A DNA stretch of 64,000 bases from Eledone cirrhosa (Eukaryota). A model generated the notes under the pieces. That model saw only the letters and a list, made by a program, of their open reading frames with translations. It did not search any database and was not told where the DNA came from. Position 1 is the stretch's first letter. Each line of letters begins with the position of its first letter. Location: the NCBI GenBank assembly GCA_964016885.1, contig OZ024740.1, forward strand, positions 224,378,001 to 224,442,000. Reading direction: 5' to 3'. Of the stretch, positions 2,768 to 39,283 are shown in pieces. The translations under genes were made by a program, and so were the position numbers.

Positions 2768-5437
2768 CTATTGGGGTGATAACCCGTTTAGTTTTGGTTT
2801 AAATTTGTTAAGGAATAGATTTTCTTTGTTTATTCTTTGTTGCTGTGTGAACGAATCTGAGCACTTGTAGAAGGGGAAGATTTTAAAGTTGGGTAGTGTC
2901 ATTCCTGCGCAGTTCGCAATATGGCTGCTCAAGGGGATTTTTCTTGTGTTAGCGTCCCGGATTTGTTGGCGGTGGATGGTCATTCTTTTGCGTAATGAGG
3001 TGCCCGTCTGTCCTATGTAGTTGTGTTTGCACCCACCGCAAGTTATTGCGTAAATCAAGTTCTCCGAGTTGCAGGTGAAATTGTTTTTTACTGTAAATGT
3101 TTGGCCATCTTTGAATGTAAATGTTTGTCCTTCAGTGAGGTAGAGGCACGTTCCACAGTTTGTTCTACCACATTTGGTAACTGTAGGGTTGAGGATTGGT
3201 TTGGGTATATTTGGTCCAGTGAGAATGCGTTTAAGTGATTTGGGTTGTCTTTTACTTTTAAGGATCTTGTGTGTTTCAAGAATAGACTTCATTTTTACAT
3301 CTTTAAGTAGGATGGGGAGGTTTTTGTGTAGGTAATCAAACATTTCGGTATTTCTGGGGTTGAAAGTGGATACATATGGCAGGGTGTTTAGTGTGGTTTT
3401 CTGTTTTGGATTGTTAAGTTGATGGGGATTTAGGTGTTTTGCCCTGTCTATTCCATTGTTGATTATTTCAAGTGGAAAGGCTCTTAAGATAAGGGTGTCT
3501 TTTAGTTCCTTTAGTCTTTGCTCCCGTTTAGGTGGATCTGATACTATGGTACATATACGTTTGGCCAAATTGTAAGGAATGTTAAGTTTTGTATGTTTTG
3601 GGTGACTTGATGTAAAAAAGAGGTATTGCTTGGAATCTGTGGGTTTATAGAATATATCTGTATCTAATTTCCCGTCTATTACAGAGATGAGAATATCCAA
3701 GAAGGCTAATTCCTTAGGATTGGATTCCATTGTGAATTGTATGTTATTATCTATGTTGTTTATCATGTTTTTAAACGTAGTAAGTGAGTTCATGTCTTCT
3801 TGCCATAGGATAAAGCAGTCGTCTAGATATCTTTTCCAATTGGCTTTGAGGTGTGTGTGGAAAGAGTCTCCAAATAAGAGAAGAGACTGACTGTATATTT
3901 GTTGTTCATGGAATCCCATGACTAGGTTGGCATATGTGGGTGCTACTTTCGTGCCCATTGCCGTACCTGATACTTGTCTGTATGTTGAACCATTGAATGT
4001 GAAGTAGTTATTTTGTAGGATAAAGCGGAGTCCGTCAGTGATAAAATCTGTGTTGATGCGTGTCGGTATTTCTGATGGGTGTGTGTTAAGCCAGTATTGG
4101 ACTGCTGTTATTCCATAGTTGTGAGGTATGTTTGTGTAGAGGTTTATTACGTCAAAGGAGACAAGAATTGTATTTGCACTTACTGTTTTAGGGAGGTGTT
4201 TCAGCATGTCAAGGTCATCTCGTATGTAGCTCTGTATATGTTGTAGAAAGGGTTTCAGTAGGATGTCCAGAAAGTTGCTAAGTCTGTAGGTTTCACATGT
4301 AGGGCCTGCTATAATTGGCCTGAGTTTTAGGTCTTCTGGTGGTGTTAGTTCAATGTAATTGTTGGTTGAGGTGTCACATGCATCGTTTATGGGTTTACAT
4401 TTGTGGAGTTTCGGTAAGCCGTAAAAAGAGCTTGTATTGCATTTGAAGTGGCTTATATAGTTAAACTCTTTTGTGGTTAAGCTGTTGCGGTATTTATTCA
4501 GTAAGGTCAAAAGGTTCCCCATTGTTTTGGTGTGTTTGTAGTTTTCTGTTTTTTCATAGTATGTGTTGTTTTCTAAAATGTTAAGTGCGAGGGTCCTATA
4601 GTAGTCCGTATTCATAATGACAACAGTACTGCCTTTATCGGCTTCTTTGATAGTTATCTCAGGGTTGTTTCTAAGTGTGAATAATTCTTCCCATTCGTGT
4701 GTAGATAGGTTTGATTTCGTGTGTTTATTTGTAATTTTTTCATAGGGAAAGTTGGTGATGTGTTCGCAGTACGTGTCCAGTGCTTTATTTCTTCCCTTTT
4801 GTGGGCAGAAATTGCTTTTATTTCTAACCAGTGATTCGTCTTCAGTGTTGGTGTCGTTGTGGAAGAATTCCGTTAGTCGCAGCTTTCGGCAGTATTCCAT
4901 GATGTCATCCTTCATTTCGGGGAAGTTTGGTTTACGTGGTGTAGGTGTAAATTTCAGGCCCTTACTTAAAATGTTGATTTGTGTGTTGGTTAGAGGTGTC
5001 TTTGAGAGGTTGATTATTTTTGGTTTCTCCTGAGGGGGGGGGGGGGGGGGGCATCGAGTATCCTGGTATTTCAGGCTTTTCCCTAAAAAAGGAATGTAGT
5101 TTTGTGTGTGATTATATTTTGTTGGTCTGTTGCGTGTGGGTCTGTAGCTTGTTGTTTCATGAGGGTGAATGTGATGGTGGGGGTGGTATGTGTTGTGGTT
5201 GTTGATGAGCAAGGGTTCTGTTGTTGGTTCATGTGGTCTGGGTGCGTTATTTCTGTGGTACAGAGTGTTGAGGTTGGGGGGTTGTCTTTTGTTGGATTGA
5301 GGGTGATGTCTGGTGTGGTTGTGGGTAAGTTCTGTTGTGATTTCAAGTGGTCTGGGTGGATTTCTTCTGAGGAATGTGGTGTGTGTGTTTTGTGTTGTAT
5401 TAATCAACATTTGAAAAGATGGCTTTTGCAGACCCAT
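2768..5437 (-). CDS. Penelope-like reverse transcriptase + GIY-YIG endonuclease (889 aa, uninterrupted)
   Basis: RT motifs YGLPKLHK, LRPIIA, VSFDVINLYTNIP, GTAMGTKVAPTYANL, RYLDD; Cys linker CGRTNCGTC; GIY-YIG NLIYAITCGGCKHNYIGQT. The first ~13 codons come from the inverted pseudo-LTR, so the true start is uncertain. Confidence 0.95.
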   Translation of the reverse strand: MGLQKPSFQMLINTTQNTHTTFLRRNPPRPLEITTELTHNHTRHHPQSNKRQPPNLNTLYHRNNAPRPHEPTTEPLLINNHNTYHPHHHIHPHETTSYRPTRNRPTKYNHTQNYIPFLGKSLKYQDTRCPPPPPPQEKPKIINLSKTPLTNTQINILSKGLKFTPTPRKPNFPEMKDDIMEYCRKLRLTEFFHNDTNTEDESLVRNKSNFCPQKGRNKALDTYCEHITNFPYEKITNKHTKSNLSTHEWEELFTLRNNPEITIKEADKGSTVVIMNTDYYRTLALNILENNTYYEKTENYKHTKTMGNLLTLLNKYRNSLTTKEFNYISHFKCNTSSFYGLPKLHKCKPINDACDTSTNNYIELTPPEDLKLRPIIAGPTCETYRLSNFLDILLKPFLQHIQSYIRDDLDMLKHLPKTVSANTILVSFDVINLYTNIPHNYGITAVQYWLNTHPSEIPTRINTDFITDGLRFILQNNYFTFNGSTYRQVSGTAMGTKVAPTYANLVMGFHEQQIYSQSLLLFGDSFHTHLKANWKRYLDDCFILWQEDMNSLTTFKNMINNIDNNIQFTMESNPKELAFLDILISVIDGKLDTDIFYKPTDSKQYLFFTSSHPKHTKLNIPYNLAKRICTIVSDPPKREQRLKELKDTLILRAFPLEIINNGIDRAKHLNPHQLNNPKQKTTLNTLPYVSTFNPRNTEMFDYLHKNLPILLKDVKMKSILETHKILKSKRQPKSLKRILTGPNIPKPILNPTVTKCGRTNCGTCLYLTEGQTFTFKDGQTFTVKNNFTCNSENLIYAITCGGCKHNYIGQTGTSLRKRMTIHRQQIRDANTRKIPLSSHIANCAGMTLPNFKIFPFYKCSDSFTQQQRINKENLFLNKFKPKLNGLSPQ

Positions 5438-5558
5438 CGAAACCGGTCATTTTTTATACCCTTTATTATTTCCTTACCTTATAAAATTATGTTTTTTCAC
5501 AAAAAAGTATTCTTTCTCTTATATATTCCATGTGCCATTACCAACCTCAATTTTCTCT
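5398..5558 (+). repeat. Inverted 5' pseudo-LTR copy with hammerhead-variant motif (5406-5453)
   Basis: TTGAAAA(5411-5417) GATGG/CCATC GAAA(5439-5442) CCGG TC; inverted relative to 1512-1673. Confidence 0.8.
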
Positions 5559-5589
5559 ATAACCTTCGTTTTGTGTAGAAAATTACACT

Positions 5590-5670
<81 letters not shown>

Positions 5671-6344
5671 TAGAAAGAGAGAGCTACACACACTACATTA
5701 AGCTCTATAAGCTCTATTACTCACAGTGGGAGAAAGGTGTGTAGAAGAGAACCAATTTACATCAACAGGTACATATAAATAGAGGGGAAGAGGCAGAGCG
5801 AGAGAGAGAGCGAGAGAGAGAGCGAGAGAGAGAGAGAATGAGGGAGACAGAAACATACATACACACACACATATATATATATATAATTATCATTCTTCTG
5901 TGATGGCAGTCAGAATAAAATACTTAGAAATCTAAACAATGCCAATCAATAGGACTTGATGTAGAATGAAAACATAAACCAATTTTGTTAGAATCATTAG
6001 AGAACAATCTAGAAATGTAAAACAACAAAACAAAAGCAACAAAAAAAAAGGCAGCAATTATTTCTCTATATTATGGAATTGCAATTATTGTAGTAGGTAG
6101 GTTAATGCTGGGAAACAGACTCGCATCGACATATTATTTCAAGAACATTTATACCTACTACTGTTGCTACTTATGATGCCTCTGCTGTTAATACTACTAC
6201 TCCTGGTGCTACTACTACGACCACTACTCTTACTACTACTACTACTACTACTTCTACTACTGTTGCTGCTGCTGCATTGTGAAATATTTGACCATTAGGA
6301 AAATAATGTTATACAACATCAACATCAACAGCAATAATAACAAG

Positions 6345-33647: not shown

Positions 33648-34479
33648 TTTAAATATATTGTTTTATATAATAATCCATATAGATCTATTATATGTGATCC
33701 AAACTATTTATAAACTACAATGTAGCTCTCACTTACAGTTATGTACCTCTATCACATGATTTGTGTACCTGGGTGATGTACTGGCAAAGTTGTTAGAGCA
33801 TAGGACATTTGTTCCAGTCTTATATACTCTGAATTCAAATCTTGCTAAGGTCAACTTTACCTTTTATTTTGGGCATTGATAAAATTCACCACATGGGAGG
33901 GGAATTAACAGAATATTTAGAGTATTTGACAAGATAACTTGTGGTATTTGATTTGATTCTTTTAATTCTGAGTGCAAATCTCCTTGAAGCCAATTTGGTT
34001 GGAAAACTTAATCTCTCACTTAGTTTAGTGCTGCCATCTGGTACATGGGTGTCTCTAGCAGAGTCAAATCTGATACAATCATTCAAATTAGATTAAAATC
34101 ATCGATCAAATCAGGAAGGCAGGCATGTAGCTTAGTGGTTAGAGAATTGGATTCATGATCGTCAGGTTACAAGTTTGATTCCTGGGTTGAGCAATGCATT
34201 ATGCCCATCAGCAAGACACTATTTCTTGACAGCAGTTTTTATCAATAGATAGTATCAGCAATGGAAAGACCAATGGAAACATTGTTTCCTTGGATCAATT
34301 TGATGAGTTTAACTCTACTTGGAAAGCAAATGAGGTCTCGGATCTTGTCAAATTATTTGATTGATATTAAAATCAACTACAGCTATAACCACTAAGCCAC
34401 ATGCCTTCACAAATATATATATATATACTCATCATCATCGTTTAACCTCCCCCCTCCGTGCAGTGTGTGTATGGGGGTG

Positions 34480-36020
34480 GGGGTAGGAGGTCCATCATTA
34501 TGTCTATTGATTGTTCGTGTCCTGTAAAAGATTGTCAAAATAGTAACCAAAGCATGCATACTTCTATCTGGAGACGGAGTCCGAAATCTCTTTCGTCGTT
34601 CCTCGTCTGTTTGTTGGAGTCGTTCGTATTCGTCTAGAATGGAAGCGAGGTTATCATCTGAAGATGAGCTGTCCTCATTTATTAGATTGCTAAAACAATG
34701 TACATAAAAGAGAATATTCCAGATAAAAGGATTAAGCTTTTTTTTTACGTATTTTAGAAATGGAGAGCATGTTGTGAAAACGTATTCTGTGTATCGTGTG
34801 ATGAAAGCAATTTTTTCTGAGAGTGGTGCGTTCTGGTCGAACTTGTTGTTGCTGGTAATTATGAGTGGCATCCTATGAACTATTTGGTCTTGTTTAAACT
34901 TAATAGCTACCTCCGTATCAATTCCCTCAACGAGTTTCTTGAATGTCTGCAGTGTCTCTAAAGTGAAGTTTGGTTTTCTATCAGACCTATTTCAACATTG
35001 ATCAGATTTTGAAATGGGAAGCTGCTTGTACCCTGTATTGTTGATACGTGAGTGAACATATCAGCAATACTTCTGGCCACCATAGACTTTCCTGTGTTTG
35101 GTATTCCTCTTAGTACGAGTAAATTTCGTTTTGGCTTTTTGGGGGTTAGCAGCTTCCATACTGTAGTGACAAAGCTTGCTTCTTGTAAATCTTGTGTCAT
35201 AATAATTGATTTTAATATTTTTAGCGATACATCCCTGTCCATGTAGTTCTTATTGTTGTCAAAGAACTCCCAGTTCATATTTTCGAACTTTTCTTTAAAA
35301 CATATTCAGGGTTTTCAGTTTCTCGCATTCTAAAACATTTTTCATAATGCTATCGTGCATAGGATGTGATATGGCTCTCATGAAATTATCGTTGTTTGTT
35401 CGATGTAGCCAATGAGATTTCATGTCTTGTTCGCTTCGGAACTTTTTTGATGTGAATATGTACGTGAGGTAGTTAAAAAGCGTTAGAGTAGTACCCAATT
35501 TTGACTTAAAAGTCGGTTCTTCCTGTGTGCTCGTTTGTTGTCTGCTAGTAGATTGTTTCGGTTGTGCGCCAGTCTGAAAATGTTTCGTTTGTGTCGTCTA
35601 TTCCTTGGATGAGTACATAACGAGGAGGTTGGCAGAAGTAGTTCGCCATGCTGGAAGGAAATTTTATTCTCTGACATTCTGGTATGTATCATACTAATTT
35701 TGTGGCCTTTTTGTATAAGCTTCTTATATATTTCAGACGTTGATTCTCTCCTGGTCTCTGCATACTATGCCATATAATATGAAAGTGGTTAAAGGCATTC
35801 CACTCTTTTTTTGGCGCATAAAGTGTTGTTTTTTGGGTGATATATTACTGTGGCTCCCTCACAGTGAATGAACTCTTTTATCTTATAGTTGCTGCTTATC
35901 TGGTACACATTTTTTCTGCTCTCATCATTATATTCGTTTATATTTAATTCGAAATGTTTGATTGGACCTTCTCCATGTACAGCTTGTGGCCGGCGCTCTG
36001 AAATGGAAAATGGTTACATT
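34480..36020 (-). pseudogene. NS1: Parvoviral NS1/Rep (HUH endonuclease + SF3 helicase), frameshifted
   Basis: HUH motif NHFHIIW (35773-35787); KRNLLVLRGIPNTGKS Walker A (~35084-35107); IGLIE Walker B; after a frameshift, TFKKLVEGIDTEVAIK (B') and MPLIITSNN (motif C); C-terminal KKLNPFIW. Confidence 0.93.
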
Positions 36021-36074
36021 GTAATACTACTTTAACGATGTGCTTGTCGAGTTCGATCCACTCTCGTTATTTCG

Positions 36075-36258
36075 GCGGTGGATTGGCAGTATTGGTAGAG
36101 GGTCGGACGCCATGCTTTCCAGCATAGTTACGTCCCTTTATGATCTGAGTTCAAATCCCGCCGAGGTTGACTTTGCCTTTCATCCTTACGGGGTCGATAA
36201 AATAAAGTACCAGTAATGCACTGGGTGATTGCTGGCCTGGTGCCTTAAGTAGAAACAA
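36075..36258 (+). mobile_element. SINE family A inserted in the 3' end of the viral VP gene
   Basis: Full-length copy flanked by TSD TTATTTCG (36067-36074 and 36259-36266). Confidence 0.9.
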
Positions 36259-37572
36259 TTATTTCGTAATTACGTAAACCTTGTGGCCATTTACATAAGT
36301 CAGTTTTTGCTGAATTCATTATTGTTGCATTAGCTGTACCCCAAGCCATCCAACCCATTGTTTGAGGATTACCAGATATGTATTCGAAATCTACCTCTGA
36401 GTAATATGTAATCGTTATCATAAATGATATTTTTGATGGGTTATTTTGTGAATCTAATATTGGTACTGAGTCTAATGTTGCTATTAGTGGTGGATTTGAT
36501 GGATTTACAGGAAATTGTGTTAGATGTGATCTACCCGTATTTTCTTCTTCATCAGTTTTATCTACTGCTAAATCCTTACTCCATGTACCGTCTTTTGTTG
36601 GTGCCCATTGTGATTTTTTAGCCCCCGAATATGTATTTATTTCACAAGGTAAACCGTTAGTTAATTTGATAGTTGGTGGTTCGAAAGTAGTGTTGAATGC
36701 GTAATACCCCATAAGCGAAAACCAACTAGGTGTTCTATTTATCCATGTGTATTGTGCTGTATCACCAGCGTATAAGAATTGGAAGTCGCCCGTGTTTAGA
36801 TATGATAGTATTTCTTCTACTGGCATTTCTTGTTCTGTAGCTGTTGCAGTTTTTGTATCTTGCCATATCTCTTCTAATTAGTCTATTGCTTTCTATTCCT
36901 TCTAATTTCCCTTCTTCTCTTGTAAGTGGTAGGTTATGTGTCCAGTTATTATTTAAATGAGCTATATTCCAGGTTTGATTTGGGAATAATGCTATTTATT
37001 ATCTACGTAATGTATCATCCATGGTCTAGTGTTGAATGTAGTGTTTGTTGTAGTAGTGTTTTGTAATGTACCCAATTCGTCTGTTAGTGGTATTATGTTC
37101 GATATTTTGTAACCGCATGATTTTACTCTGAAATTGCTTGCTGGTGTTAAGTATGTTTCTAATTCTGCTATTGTCAGACTTGCTTTTAATTGTGTAAGAA
37201 ATTAAAGCTGCTCTATGTGCTAATCTTAATTGTATATATTCTGCGTCGTGTTTTTTGTAATATGCTTTGTCTACTGGATTATCGGAACAATTTATGTAAT
37301 GTATGAATGTTCTTGAGAATTTTTTAGAGACTATTGGATTTATATCCCCTATTACTGGTGGTTGATCCCCTTGTGCTAATGCTGCTGACCCTCCTGGTGA
37401 TGGTCCTACGTGTGGATCCCCCATTGCTGGTGTTTTTACTATCCCACTTTCTTGTGATGTTGCTGCGTTTACTAGATCTTGGTCAGATATTTCGCAACTG
37501 TCTTGGTTTTTATGTGATTGTTCTTGTTCTATTTTTCTTTTTTTTTTTCAGTCGGTGGCATTACAATTTGTT

Positions 37573-37807
37573 GGCATACCTCAAGACGGGCGGTCTCAAA
37601 AGTGAAACTAATTTTTGACAGTTACGTAAGTGATTACTTTCAATTTGGATTGTGAACTTGCTTGTTTTTTTTACAACAGGTCTCTATAGTGATATGGTGT
37701 TAATTAGTATTGCGTGTACTTGATTTTTTTTTTTTTTTCTTTTTTTGTGTATTGTGTGTACGGAAATTTTTTTTTAAAATAATGACATTGTGTGTTGAAA
37801 TAAATAA

Positions 37808-37850
<43 letters not shown>

Positions 37851-38669
37851 TACAAATTCATACAAATGTGTATGTGTGCATAAATATATATATACATACA
37901 CATATATATATATATATACACATACACATATATATACACACAAACACACATATATATACACACAAACACACATATATATACACACACAAACACATATATA
38001 CACACAAACATATATATACGTCTAAACCCATGCTTGCGTGGAAGATAGACGTTAAACGATGATGATGACACAAACACATATATATATACAAACACACATA
38101 TCATCATCATCATCATCAACGTTTAACGTCCGTGTTCCACGCTTGCATGGGTTTGGACGGGGGTAGTCCCACTTGAGGCAAGAGTGATTGTCTTGCTCGC
38201 ATAGGACTGTCTGGCAGGTTTTCTACAGTTGGATGCCCTTCCTAACACCAACCACATTTACAGTGTGGGTCTGGGAGGTTTTTACCGTGTTGCCTACACG
38301 GCCACATTACAGCATGGACTGTGTGTTTTTTTTGTCGTGACACCTACACGATCTCATTTGTTTCGGCCTCGATGGCGCGGCACCAACATAACTTTACATA
38401 GAACGGGGTGGTGTGGATGGGGTGGGGGTGGTGGTGGTGGGACGCGGTGTATTTTGTTAGAGATGCCTACTGGCTGGAGTAGGTTTTACTATATATATAT
38501 ATACATACACACACACATATATATACACACATATACACACCCACACATATATATATATTAAGAAATCCATACAATTGCGTGTGTCTGCATTATACTTTCA
38601 CTATTGAGACCTGTTGTAAAAAAAAAAAAATTAGTCTCACTTTTGAGACCGCCCGTCTTGACGTATGGC
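37573..38669. mobile_element. Non-autonomous Mutator-like DNA transposon inserted in the viral VP gene
   Basis: TIR GGCATACCTCAAGACGGGCGGTCTCAAAAGTGAAACTAATTTTT vs revcomp GCCATACGTCAAGACGGGCGGTCTCAAAAGTGAGACTAATTTTT, extending inward (TTTTACAACAGGTCTC); 9-bp TSD CAATTTGTT (37564-37572 and 38670-38678). Confidence 0.85.
38100..38475 (-). mobile_element. Short 5'-truncated RTE copy nested in the Mutator-like element
   Basis: Nearly identical to 13795-14167 (3' UTR and tail). Confidence 0.9.
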
Positions 38670-39045
38670 CAATTTGTTTTCCTCTTATAATATTCCTTAC
38701 TAAGAACGCCGATACTCCGCTACTTTTTTTACTTCACTCAATTAGTTTGTTGTCAGCTTCATCTATAGTTATATCTGTTCTGTCATAGTCTAAATCGTGT
38801 ATTCTGCAGCAGTTGTCTAATTCATTAATAGGTTTGTTGTTGTAATTGTTTGTGTATGGTCCACAGTAATTATAATATGGTAAATGTAAAGGTATGACTT
38901 ACCGAGAGTCCTGCCAACATTGTTGCATCTCTTAGTTTCAAATCGTCGTAGCTCATTCTGAATGTCTTATTGAGTAGTAGCGAAGTATCGCCGTTCTTCT
39001 TTTGGCGTGTATTTCTGTTGTGGTAACTTTAAATGCGCGCCTTGA

Positions 39046-39120
39046 TATTTATACTTTTTTTTATGCTGACTATGCTTTTAATTTTGCCTACGTGTTCGTA
39101 TTTGAATTATTGTGATTGGA
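39046..39120 (-). promoter_or_regulatory. Putative viral promoter (CCAAT + TATA)
   Basis: Minus strand CCAAT (39115-39119) and TATAAATA (39046-39053) lie between the hairpin and the first ATG (~38956). Confidence 0.55.
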
Positions 39121-39144
39121 GAATCTGACTGCTCGTTGCACTGC

Positions 39145-39283
39145 CCTTTTGGAAAGGGAGACAAGCCGAGAGGGAGGGAGGAGGGGGGTTACATTACAGA
39201 GTTAAGGCTCTTCACGTTTGCCTTTCCGCTAAATACCTAGAATTCCTCCACCTCCCTCCAGGCTTGTCTCCCTTTCCAAAAGG
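39145..39283. repeat. Parvovirus-like terminal hairpin
   Basis: Perfect 23-bp arms CCTTTTGGAAAGGGAGACAAGCC / GGCTTGTCTCCCTTTCCAAAAGG, extended ~16 bp imperfectly; GC-rich in an AT-rich context, at the edge of the viral sequence. Confidence 0.75.

Follow-up and report, generated by a model that had tools for sequence, protein, structure and literature searches.

The parvovirus early-to-late switch rests on an order in which NS lies to the left and VP to the right, and in the single-promoter erythro- and amdoparvoviruses it is VP, not NS1, that is made by splicing. As described in PMC11357303, parvoviruses place NS left and VP right, or else carry VP on the other strand. A VP-upstream order was noted in 2022 for two goose-cloaca parvoviruses of 7.2-7.5 kb (MT138329 and MT138334; PMC9001828), and in the Swazi bat-associated megaparvovirus lineage, with four ORFs in ~6.4 kb, the capsid ORF lies downstream of NS1 (PMC13426907). 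The Octopus sequences KOF81493/A0A0L8GWZ8 and KOF62817 were catalogued in 2016 as helicase fragments only (PMC5013282, supplement); the main text of that paper, in the portions available, mentions neither octopus nor orientation nor upstream order. A search outside which subscription journals and ICTV proposals mostly fell yielded no account of how octopus parvoviruses order their genes and none of a layout with VP inside an NS1 intron, and the accessible text of PMC6085071, PMC10267136 and PMC12297876 offers no precedent for this layout.

The window considered here is a 64,000-nucleotide stretch of the Eledone cirrhosa genome, in which the element presented in Table 1 is a degraded integrant of a parvovirus-like virus of cephalopods. 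The minus-strand order proposed in a first-pass annotation, namely, palindrome, CCAAT/TATA, PLA2-bearing capsid gene and NS1 with HUH and SF3 motifs, was confirmed by folding and by Pfam matches. The hairpin at 39283-39145 showed an MFE of -45.5 kcal/mol (z -8.39), with equal stability seen in 0 of 200 shuffles. Its outer stem is perfect over 23 bp and its centre is largely open; other copies show a longer palindrome, the window hairpin being a shortened form. The two insertions that the annotation had placed were also borne out, each being bounded by an 8-bp target duplication, namely, AACAAATT at 38678-38671 and 37572-37565 for the MITE-like insertion, and CGAAATAA at 36266-36259 and 36074-36067 for the dispersed repeat, which is probably SINE-like.

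Table 1. Features of the integrated copy, listed along the minus strand (positions are those of the window).
Feature	Position	Strand	Remarks
Left terminal palindrome, shortened	39145..39283	-	central bubble asymmetric, orientation A
CCAAT (39119-39115) and TATA(AA) (39053-39048)	39044..39119	-	likely single promoter, putative start site
NS1 exon 1, ATG leader of 18 codons	38903..38956	-	phase-0 end
Splice donor GTAAGT	38897..38902	-	GT directly after leader codon 18
Capsid gene (VP) with N-terminal PLA2 (38895-38740)	36032..38895	-	entirely inside NS1 intron
MITE-like host insertion	37573..38678		inverted ends of ~37 bp, 8-bp target duplication
Dispersed host repeat insertion	36075..36266		repeat family D9, inverted pair I3, 8-bp target duplication
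Intron 3' end, pyrimidine tract and CAG acceptor (AG 35999-35998)	35998..36031	-	no hairpin
NS1 exon 2 with HUH and SF3 Walker A, B, B' and C	34548..35997	-	
Right end, degenerate, GA-rich remnant	34440..34547	-	resembles right-hairpin core of fuller copies by eye

In the window, VP is disrupted by stops, frame changes and the two insertions, ends at a stop codon at 36034-36032 and, as it stands, presents a PLA2 frame lacking an opening ATG. NS1 exon 2 is disrupted by stops and frame changes and lacks its C-terminal end, corresponding to the last ~45 codons; the HUH motif HFHIIW is found at ~35787-35770 and the Walker A motif GIPNTGKS at 35107-35084. Homology to other copies stops at ~34548, and the right-end hairpin is missing from this copy, the 34430-34600 region showing no stable fold (z 0.14). 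In open copies elsewhere, VP comprises 522-538 aa and the ORF of the second NS1 exon 543-549 aa, both longer than the roughly 500-520 codons first assigned to each gene.

Examination of 51 stretches of the E. cirrhosa genome revealed VP to come first at 24 of 27 adjacent VP/NS junctions, with the 3 NS-to-VP junctions, found at 2 places, linking interior fragments. The VP end is joined to the NS start, 52-81 nt away, at 16 junctions on many contigs, while a single 3.5-kb contig from another organism (run X7, record 16) crosses the same VP-stop-to-NS junction. The cap-first order is a property of the virus and not a local rearrangement, as the first-pass annotation had suggested. Each gene has >30 matches in the genome, the VPs are about 36 to 94% identical to the piece in the window, and the host flanks considered (n = 19) do not match one another except for one repeat pair. 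The copies form a graded series from decayed to near-identical and open, with both telomeres represented; near-identical copies (99.1-100%, mostly >99.8%), several with long open frames, occur at four unrelated sites. Ragged, truncated and palindromically duplicated copies resembling replication intermediates are also present, as are rearranged ones (L038/L039, L024, L030 and L031). Copies in all likelihood entered the genome on many occasions. A second, distant lineage in the same genome is likewise capsid-first.

In the copies examined, hairpins were found before VP and after NS1 and never between the two, in agreement with the initial reading of the window. The hairpin after NS1 (L023, L026, L027, L029, L032 and L038) is distinct from that at the left end, with only a short core in common. 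The left bubble adopts orientation A in the window, the L029 family and L044, and is reversed in L026, L032, L033 and L043; head-to-head and tail-to-tail junctions are also present among the copies. Such flip/flop bubbles and junctions suggest rolling-hairpin replication. The 14 nt preceding the window hairpin are similar to the right-end loop of other copies.

The first-pass annotation described two serial genes. VP does precede the body of NS1, yet NS1 begins upstream of VP, at a coding exon and GTAAGT donor that had been overlooked, and VP lies in its intron. The NS1 start earlier placed at ~36020 was rejected because the ATG there directly precedes a stop; the frame is entered at the acceptor instead. 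The 18-codon leader is kept in 16 copies, with differences by codon position of 551/390/754, counts that are pairwise and hence not independent. GT directly follows leader codon 18 in 14 of these 16 copies, VP starts 7-10 nt past the GT donor in all 13 copies where it was located by script, and a CAG acceptor in the NS1 phase is found at 14 of 17 junctions, that of the window being 34 nt past the VP stop. In 17 of 21 copies, a TATAAA lies 85-105 nt upstream of the leader ATG.

Contigs from four public runs were next considered. In two of these (X18 and X9), representing two organisms, a joint at 4672-6291 (L029 coordinates) omits 1618 nt with GT..AG ends, precisely at donor and acceptor sites predicted earlier from sequence; the RNA status of these contigs is uncertain. 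The X18 NS1 contig is identical to L029, the kind of run not being on record, while X9, from another organism and study, is ~82% alike to L029 and only guessed to be RNA. The joint was not listed for runs X1 and X7, and none of the runs listed with matching contigs is registered as RNA. Leader-side contigs in X1 and X9 end at the donor position and were left out of the joint count, and the other 12 joints found in run contigs do not have GT..AG ends. Unspliced contigs spanning VP also occur. In the genome, leader and NS lie at least 1.6 kb apart in all 8 pairs. Run contigs do not stop at the TATA but continue into the hairpin, and those of X1 and X9 go on into unlike sequence; they may therefore derive from DNA or from host transcripts reading through integrated copies, and not from the viral promoter. 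Because contigs omit exactly the 1618-nt GT..AG stretch that contains VP, the capsid gene can with good confidence be placed inside an NS1 intron, with one promoter at the left end likely serving both genes, splicing giving rise to NS1 and intron retention to the capsid. Since each transcript would yield either NS1 or capsid, the capsid being the NS1 intron, the switch must be one of splicing versus intron retention.

Transcription would begin ~30 nt past the TATA and terminate at the AATAAA that follows the NS1 stop, seen in L026, L027, L029 and L044; no AATAAA common to the copies was found at the VP stop. Removal of the ~1.6-kb intron would fuse the leader to NS1 in a protein of about 570 aa. 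If the RNA stays unspliced, the leader would extend into a uORF of 28-29 codons overlapping the VP ATG in another frame, for which reason leaky scanning would likely be required, and reliance of VP on such scanning is modestly favoured. An overlapping NS2 frame was also sought and rejected, no long ORF being conserved.

The window Walker A piece matches PF01057 (E 1e-8), as does NS1 (E 7e-16), in which the HUH histidines are almost invariant. The predicted NS1 structure of an open relative (pLDDT 82) aligns along AAV2 Rep68 (E 4e-15). NS1 falls in an unnamed clade (98/98) together with Octopus fossils, and the named relatives inside it are Octopus proteins, in keeping with the mollusc link first proposed; named viruses fall outside and match only part of NS1, at 28-33% identity. 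By comparison, the criterion quoted for membership of a genus is an NS1 identity of at least 35-40% over 80% of its length (PMC9001828). Thirty relatives were looked up for names and 4 clusters were named, the ICTV reference set not being included. The backbone of the tree showing the 98/98 clade does not settle whether lineages A and B form one clade, and an AU test on this point gave p 0.072. A tree of 166 rows is the product of a quick search only. Scans of IMG/VR and JGI metagenomes revealed no free-virus relatives. As for the capsid, the PLA2 domain matches PF08398 (E 4e-14), and the VP family profile matches the capsid of Penaeus monodon metallodensovirus (PmMDV; PDB 6wh3) over 56 residues (E 3e-9), the best match of the capsid body among solved structures. 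The VP model is of low confidence (pLDDT 38), and a fold search with it returned only weak PLA2 matches; the top Atlas cluster for VP stood at 0.95, with Denso_VP4 on 25% of cluster members.

Were the order intrinsic but NS1 made mainly from its own ATG, through a second promoter inside the VP end, the splice would be minor or merely a product of host read-through. Most copies have an in-frame ATG 5-8 codons into exon 2, and because this ATG is common and the predicted HUH domain is complete without the leader, the leader appears structurally dispensable; L066 and L079 of the second lineage carry a TATA after the VP stop and ahead of NS, and, as noted, run contigs reach past the viral promoter. 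Against this stand the coding-like conservation of the leader, the phase 0 held by donor and acceptor across diverged copies, the exact joint in two organisms and the absence of a TATA from the 31-42 nt that separate the acceptor from the VP stop in those junctions of the window lineage that were inspected. As such, this scheme is unlikely, and the nested-intron reading is preferred.

That an ordinary NS-VP parvovirus instead underlies the locus, whether rearranged locally, misassembled or integrated as a permuted part of a head-to-tail concatemer, draws on the rearranged copies and on the right-end-like 14 nt before the window hairpin. It is opposed by the identical junction type at 16 junctions with unrelated flanks, by the contig from another organism and by hairpins that flank the VP-NS1 pair but never intervene; this reading is scarcely credible and is largely refuted. 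Present-day spread as a genome-resident mobile element driven by its own NS1, as opposed to repeated infection, could account for the number of matches and for the near-identical open copies at unrelated sites. Yet the ragged and palindromically duplicated forms, the bubble in both orientations and the retention of a complete capsid frame render such spread quite improbable.

The lineage can be called undescribed only in part: no report of a nested intron was found, but NS1 fragments of this clade from Octopus have been on record since 2016 (PMC5013282), and VP-upstream parvoviruses were already remarked upon (PMC9001828). On balance, these copies seem to represent a subfamily-level cephalopod, perhaps wider marine-invertebrate, clade with a retrovirus-like splice switch in which the capsid gene is the replicase intron, one member now invading the octopus genome and a second, distant lineage having acquired or retained the capsid-first order with a different expression scheme. 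For an unnamed clade otherwise known only from orphan proteins, the copies establish the host, the termini and the gene plan, and since exon 1 is overlooked by gene callers, other clade members may be mis-annotated.

Comparison with described systems places the Eledone lineage apart from each. The residues given for Octopus in the PMC5013282 supplement match P0004 and P0020, both inside the Eledone NS1 clade. MT138329 and MT138334 similarly place the structural ORF before the non-structural ORF; they differ in a third large ORF and a host that is not known, the comparison being by description only, and the available description includes no analysis of termini, strand, splicing or introns (PMC9001828). 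The Swazi bat megaparvovirus lineage shares a PLA2 ORF and splice donor 5' of NS1, but there splicing likely carries a structural part across NS1, which reverses the nesting (PMC13426907), and its layout of four ORFs with the capsid downstream of NS1 is not seen here. PmMDV (Metallovirinae) has a marine invertebrate host, and its capsid body is matched by that of the Eledone lineage. Its heavy splicing is a further likeness. It lacks PLA2 and carries 416-nt ITRs (PMC11357303), whereas the Eledone lineage has PLA2 and two differing ends, not the long identical ITRs of Metallovirinae. As in monosense Parvoviridae, terminal hairpins, an NS1 that combines an HUH endonuclease with an SF3 helicase, a PLA2 at the VP N terminus (a trait of most genera), a genome of ~4 kb, both genes on one strand and alternative splicing are found (PMC11357303), the right hairpin being seen in fuller copies and not in the window. 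Neither the customary NS-left/VP-right nor the ambisense layout of classified genera is observed: in the Eledone lineage, VP lies on the promoter side and inside the NS1 intron, a departure from the stated rule of parvovirus gene order.

Re-reading of the sequence bore out the minus-strand layout described in the first-pass annotation for the parvovirus-like copy in the window, namely, a terminal hairpin, followed by VP, the PLA2-bearing capsid gene, and NS1, the HUH- and SF3-containing replication gene. The claimed hairpin is a palindrome far more stable than its shuffles (z -8.39), with the CCAAT and TATA sequences coming next, while the PLA2 motif in VP matches PF08398, the Walker A piece of the SF3 motif in NS1 matches PF01057 and both insertions present 8-bp target duplications. 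Both genes of this decayed copy are interrupted by stops and frame changes, and neither the NS1 C-terminus nor the right hairpin is present. At the point where NS1 homology stops, a 40-nt pyrimidine-rich stretch bounded by GT..AG was seen; no match to this stretch was found among the other copies searched. The rest of the window comprises repeats and retroelement fragments. An 892-codon open frame combining reverse transcriptase with a GIY-YIG-like motif at its C-terminus looks Penelope-like by eye.

In the genome containing the window, the NS1 piece yielded 36 matches among 51 candidates, the VP piece 33 among 40 and the left-end query 42 matches. The copy set of lineage A, to which the window copy belongs, consists of 50 genome stretches (denoted by L numbers) plus the window (n = 51), with both genes being present in 26 of the 51, window included. 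Adjacent gene matches ran from VP to NS in 24 cases versus from NS to VP in three. Because L024 and L066 overlap, these three represent only two places, and they join interior fragments. At 16 junctions, the VP end and NS start lie 52-81 nt apart. Comparison of 19 host flanks revealed a sole matching pair, over a short repeat, and a 3.5-kb contig from another organism's run carries NS1, VP and the leader, i.e., the 18-codon NS1 exon 1, in the order seen here. Given the 24 versus 3 junctions, the mostly unrelated flanks and this contig, the capsid-first order is real and intrinsic, as had been claimed, and is more unusual than was then proposed.

An 18-codon frame precedes VP in all 16 left ends examined, with an ATG in 15 and a GT directly after codon 18 in 14. 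VP begins 7-10 nt beyond this site, out of frame with the leader (placed in 13 of the 16). Pairwise differences between leaders number 551/390/754 at codon positions 1/2/3. Downstream of the VP stop, CAG in the NS1 phase was found at 14 of 17 junctions; of the remainder, L051 has what looks by eye like a TAG acceptor, and no acceptor could be assigned in L050 or L055. The splice was predicted from these leader, donor and acceptor signals before four public sequencing runs (X1, X7, X9 and X18) were compared with the natural copy L029. In two of the four, X18 and X9, a joint with GT..AG ends that skips 1618 nt was detected. L029 and the NS1 contig of X18 are identical; X9, which comes from a different organism and study, is ~82% alike. 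Contigs retaining VP also occur in the runs. Among the fetched copies, none of eight genomic leader-NS pairs has the leader less than 1.6 kb from NS1. The joint is known from contigs, with the kind of run X18 represents not being on record and the RNA status of X9 being guessed. Because the contigs extend past the viral TATA, host read-through may be the source of the RNA. Use of the predicted donor and acceptor sites by cephalopod cells is shown by these data, with the viral promoter being a possible origin of the spliced transcripts.

In the proposed scheme, a single promoter would likely generate one pre-mRNA ending at the AATAAA after NS1; across the copies compared, no common AATAAA was seen at the VP stop. 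Splicing would yield an NS1 of ~570 aa, while in RNA retaining the intron the leader would form a uORF of 28-29 codons that overlaps the start of VP, such that VP likely needs leaky scanning. Production of NS1 from an internal promoter remains a rival to this spliced route, since an ATG lies within the second exon itself, which, without the leader, is predicted to fold into a full HUH and SF3 protein (pLDDT 82) matching AAV2 Rep68 (E 4e-15). Six distant NS1-related proteins (P0156, P0163, P0165, P0166, P0170 and P0189) start at or near the Y-x-x-I/V-Y-P/Q-W strand of exon 2, as would be expected if gene callers had missed an upstream exon.

Lineage B, a second, distant family whose NS stands at ~30% to that of lineage A, is also capsid-first. 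Both genes are present in 7 of 15 further stretches, six being VP-to-NS and one scrambled, and L026/L027, L066 and L067 agree with this order. The VP ATG comes directly after TATA, and no leader exon was seen in lineage B copies. TATA ahead of NS in two copies (L066 and L079) makes an internal NS promoter possible there. The AU test neither established nor rejected a joint clade of the two lineages (p 0.072). At several places, copies of both lineages lie side by side among transposon fragments, clusters that might be the product of a piRNA-cluster-like trap. Tandem arrays of NS gene pieces were also noted, as was a 419-codon open frame in L061 with weak similarity (21-23%) to the capsid family; no NS match lies within that stretch, and the frame is possibly a co-opted or distant capsid. 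By eye, lineage B resembles Sepia and Euprymna ESTs given in the PMC5013282 supplement.

A hairpin lies 3' of NS1 and its AATAAA in L023, L026, L027, L029, L032 and L038. In L023, L029 and L038, this hairpin contains, or is trailed by, an inverted copy of the left-end CCTCCCTCCC core, apart from which the two ends are unlike. The left-end bubble occurs in orientation A in the window, the L029 family and L044, and in orientation B in L026, L032, L033 and L043. A head-to-head junction is present in L030 and a tail-to-tail one in L029. Rolling-hairpin replication leaves both bubble orientations and both junction types, and these marks would represent its footprints. Directly outside the left hairpin of the window copy, 14 nt resemble the right-end hairpin loop of L023, L029 and L038, a hint that a right end may have been joined to a left end in the molecule that integrated. 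Copies L029, L030, L031 and L035, found at unrelated sites, are 99.1-100% alike, mostly >99.8%, and several near-identical copies have long open frames. This family, with L068, spans four unrelated sites and presents palindromic head-to-head, tail-to-tail and fold-back junctions; it may reflect recent integration, ongoing infection or assembly chimera.

Coordinates of features in the window and in related stretches
Feature	Location	Detail
Parvovirus-like copy	window 39283-34440 (-)	hairpin, VP, NS1
Left hairpin	window 39283-39145	
Right-loop-like 14 nt	window 39299-39286	
Pyrimidine-rich stretch	window 34561-34522	
Reverse transcriptase frame	window 2768-5446 (-)	
Splice joint	L029, 4672 to 6291	
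Capsid-like frame	L061:4479-5738 (-)	
Tandem array	L037:4-3062	108-bp unit, >25 copies
Tandem array	L067:6654-7677	shorter unit
Lineage B	L026:2407-1	
Lineage B	L027:9998-8961	
Lineage B	L066:3732-6834	
Lineage B	L067, L071, L072, L073, L079, L080, L083	
Mixed-lineage cluster, genome G000	C12:8.97-9.09 Mb	
Mixed-lineage cluster, genome G000	C25:7.43-7.46 Mb	
Mixed-lineage cluster, genome G000	C2:345.36-345.38 Mb	
Mixed-lineage cluster, genome G000	C841	
Mixed-lineage cluster, genome G000	C23:3.30 Mb	
Mixed-lineage cluster, genome G000	C11:15.43-15.45 Mb	

Named homologues were found in O. vulgaris and O. bimaculoides (71-80% identity), from which the host would be an octopus. In the tree, NS1 falls in a clade (16 of 47 rows; support 98/98) together with proteins of Octopus and unnamed proteins from ENA and Logan. 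The first-pass annotation had suggested a possibly undescribed lineage, but this clade includes Octopus NS1 fragments already catalogued in PMC5013282, the available part of which does not describe the layout. Among the 30 relatives for which names were looked up, the named viruses, i.e., Turdus hortulorum parvoviridae sp., pot worm parvo-like virus 2 and army ant chapparvovirus 4, lie outside the clade. The closest viral folds to the NS1 model are those of unclassified Parvoviridae sp. VP has only two database homologues; among solved structures it best matches the PmMDV capsid, with the match covering 56 residues.

In the literature outside subscription journals, ICTV proposals and bioRxiv supplements, no report of VP lying within an NS1 intron was found. 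PMC13426907 describes a PLA2 ORF at the 5' end and the capsid downstream of NS1. Two 7-kb goose-cloaca genomes have the structural ORF upstream, according to PMC9001828, such that the capsid-first order has passing precedent. The element operates as a parvovirus does and is probably a member of that group, while breaking the customary gene-layout rule that, according to PMC11357303, places NS on the left and VP on the right in all parvoviruses.
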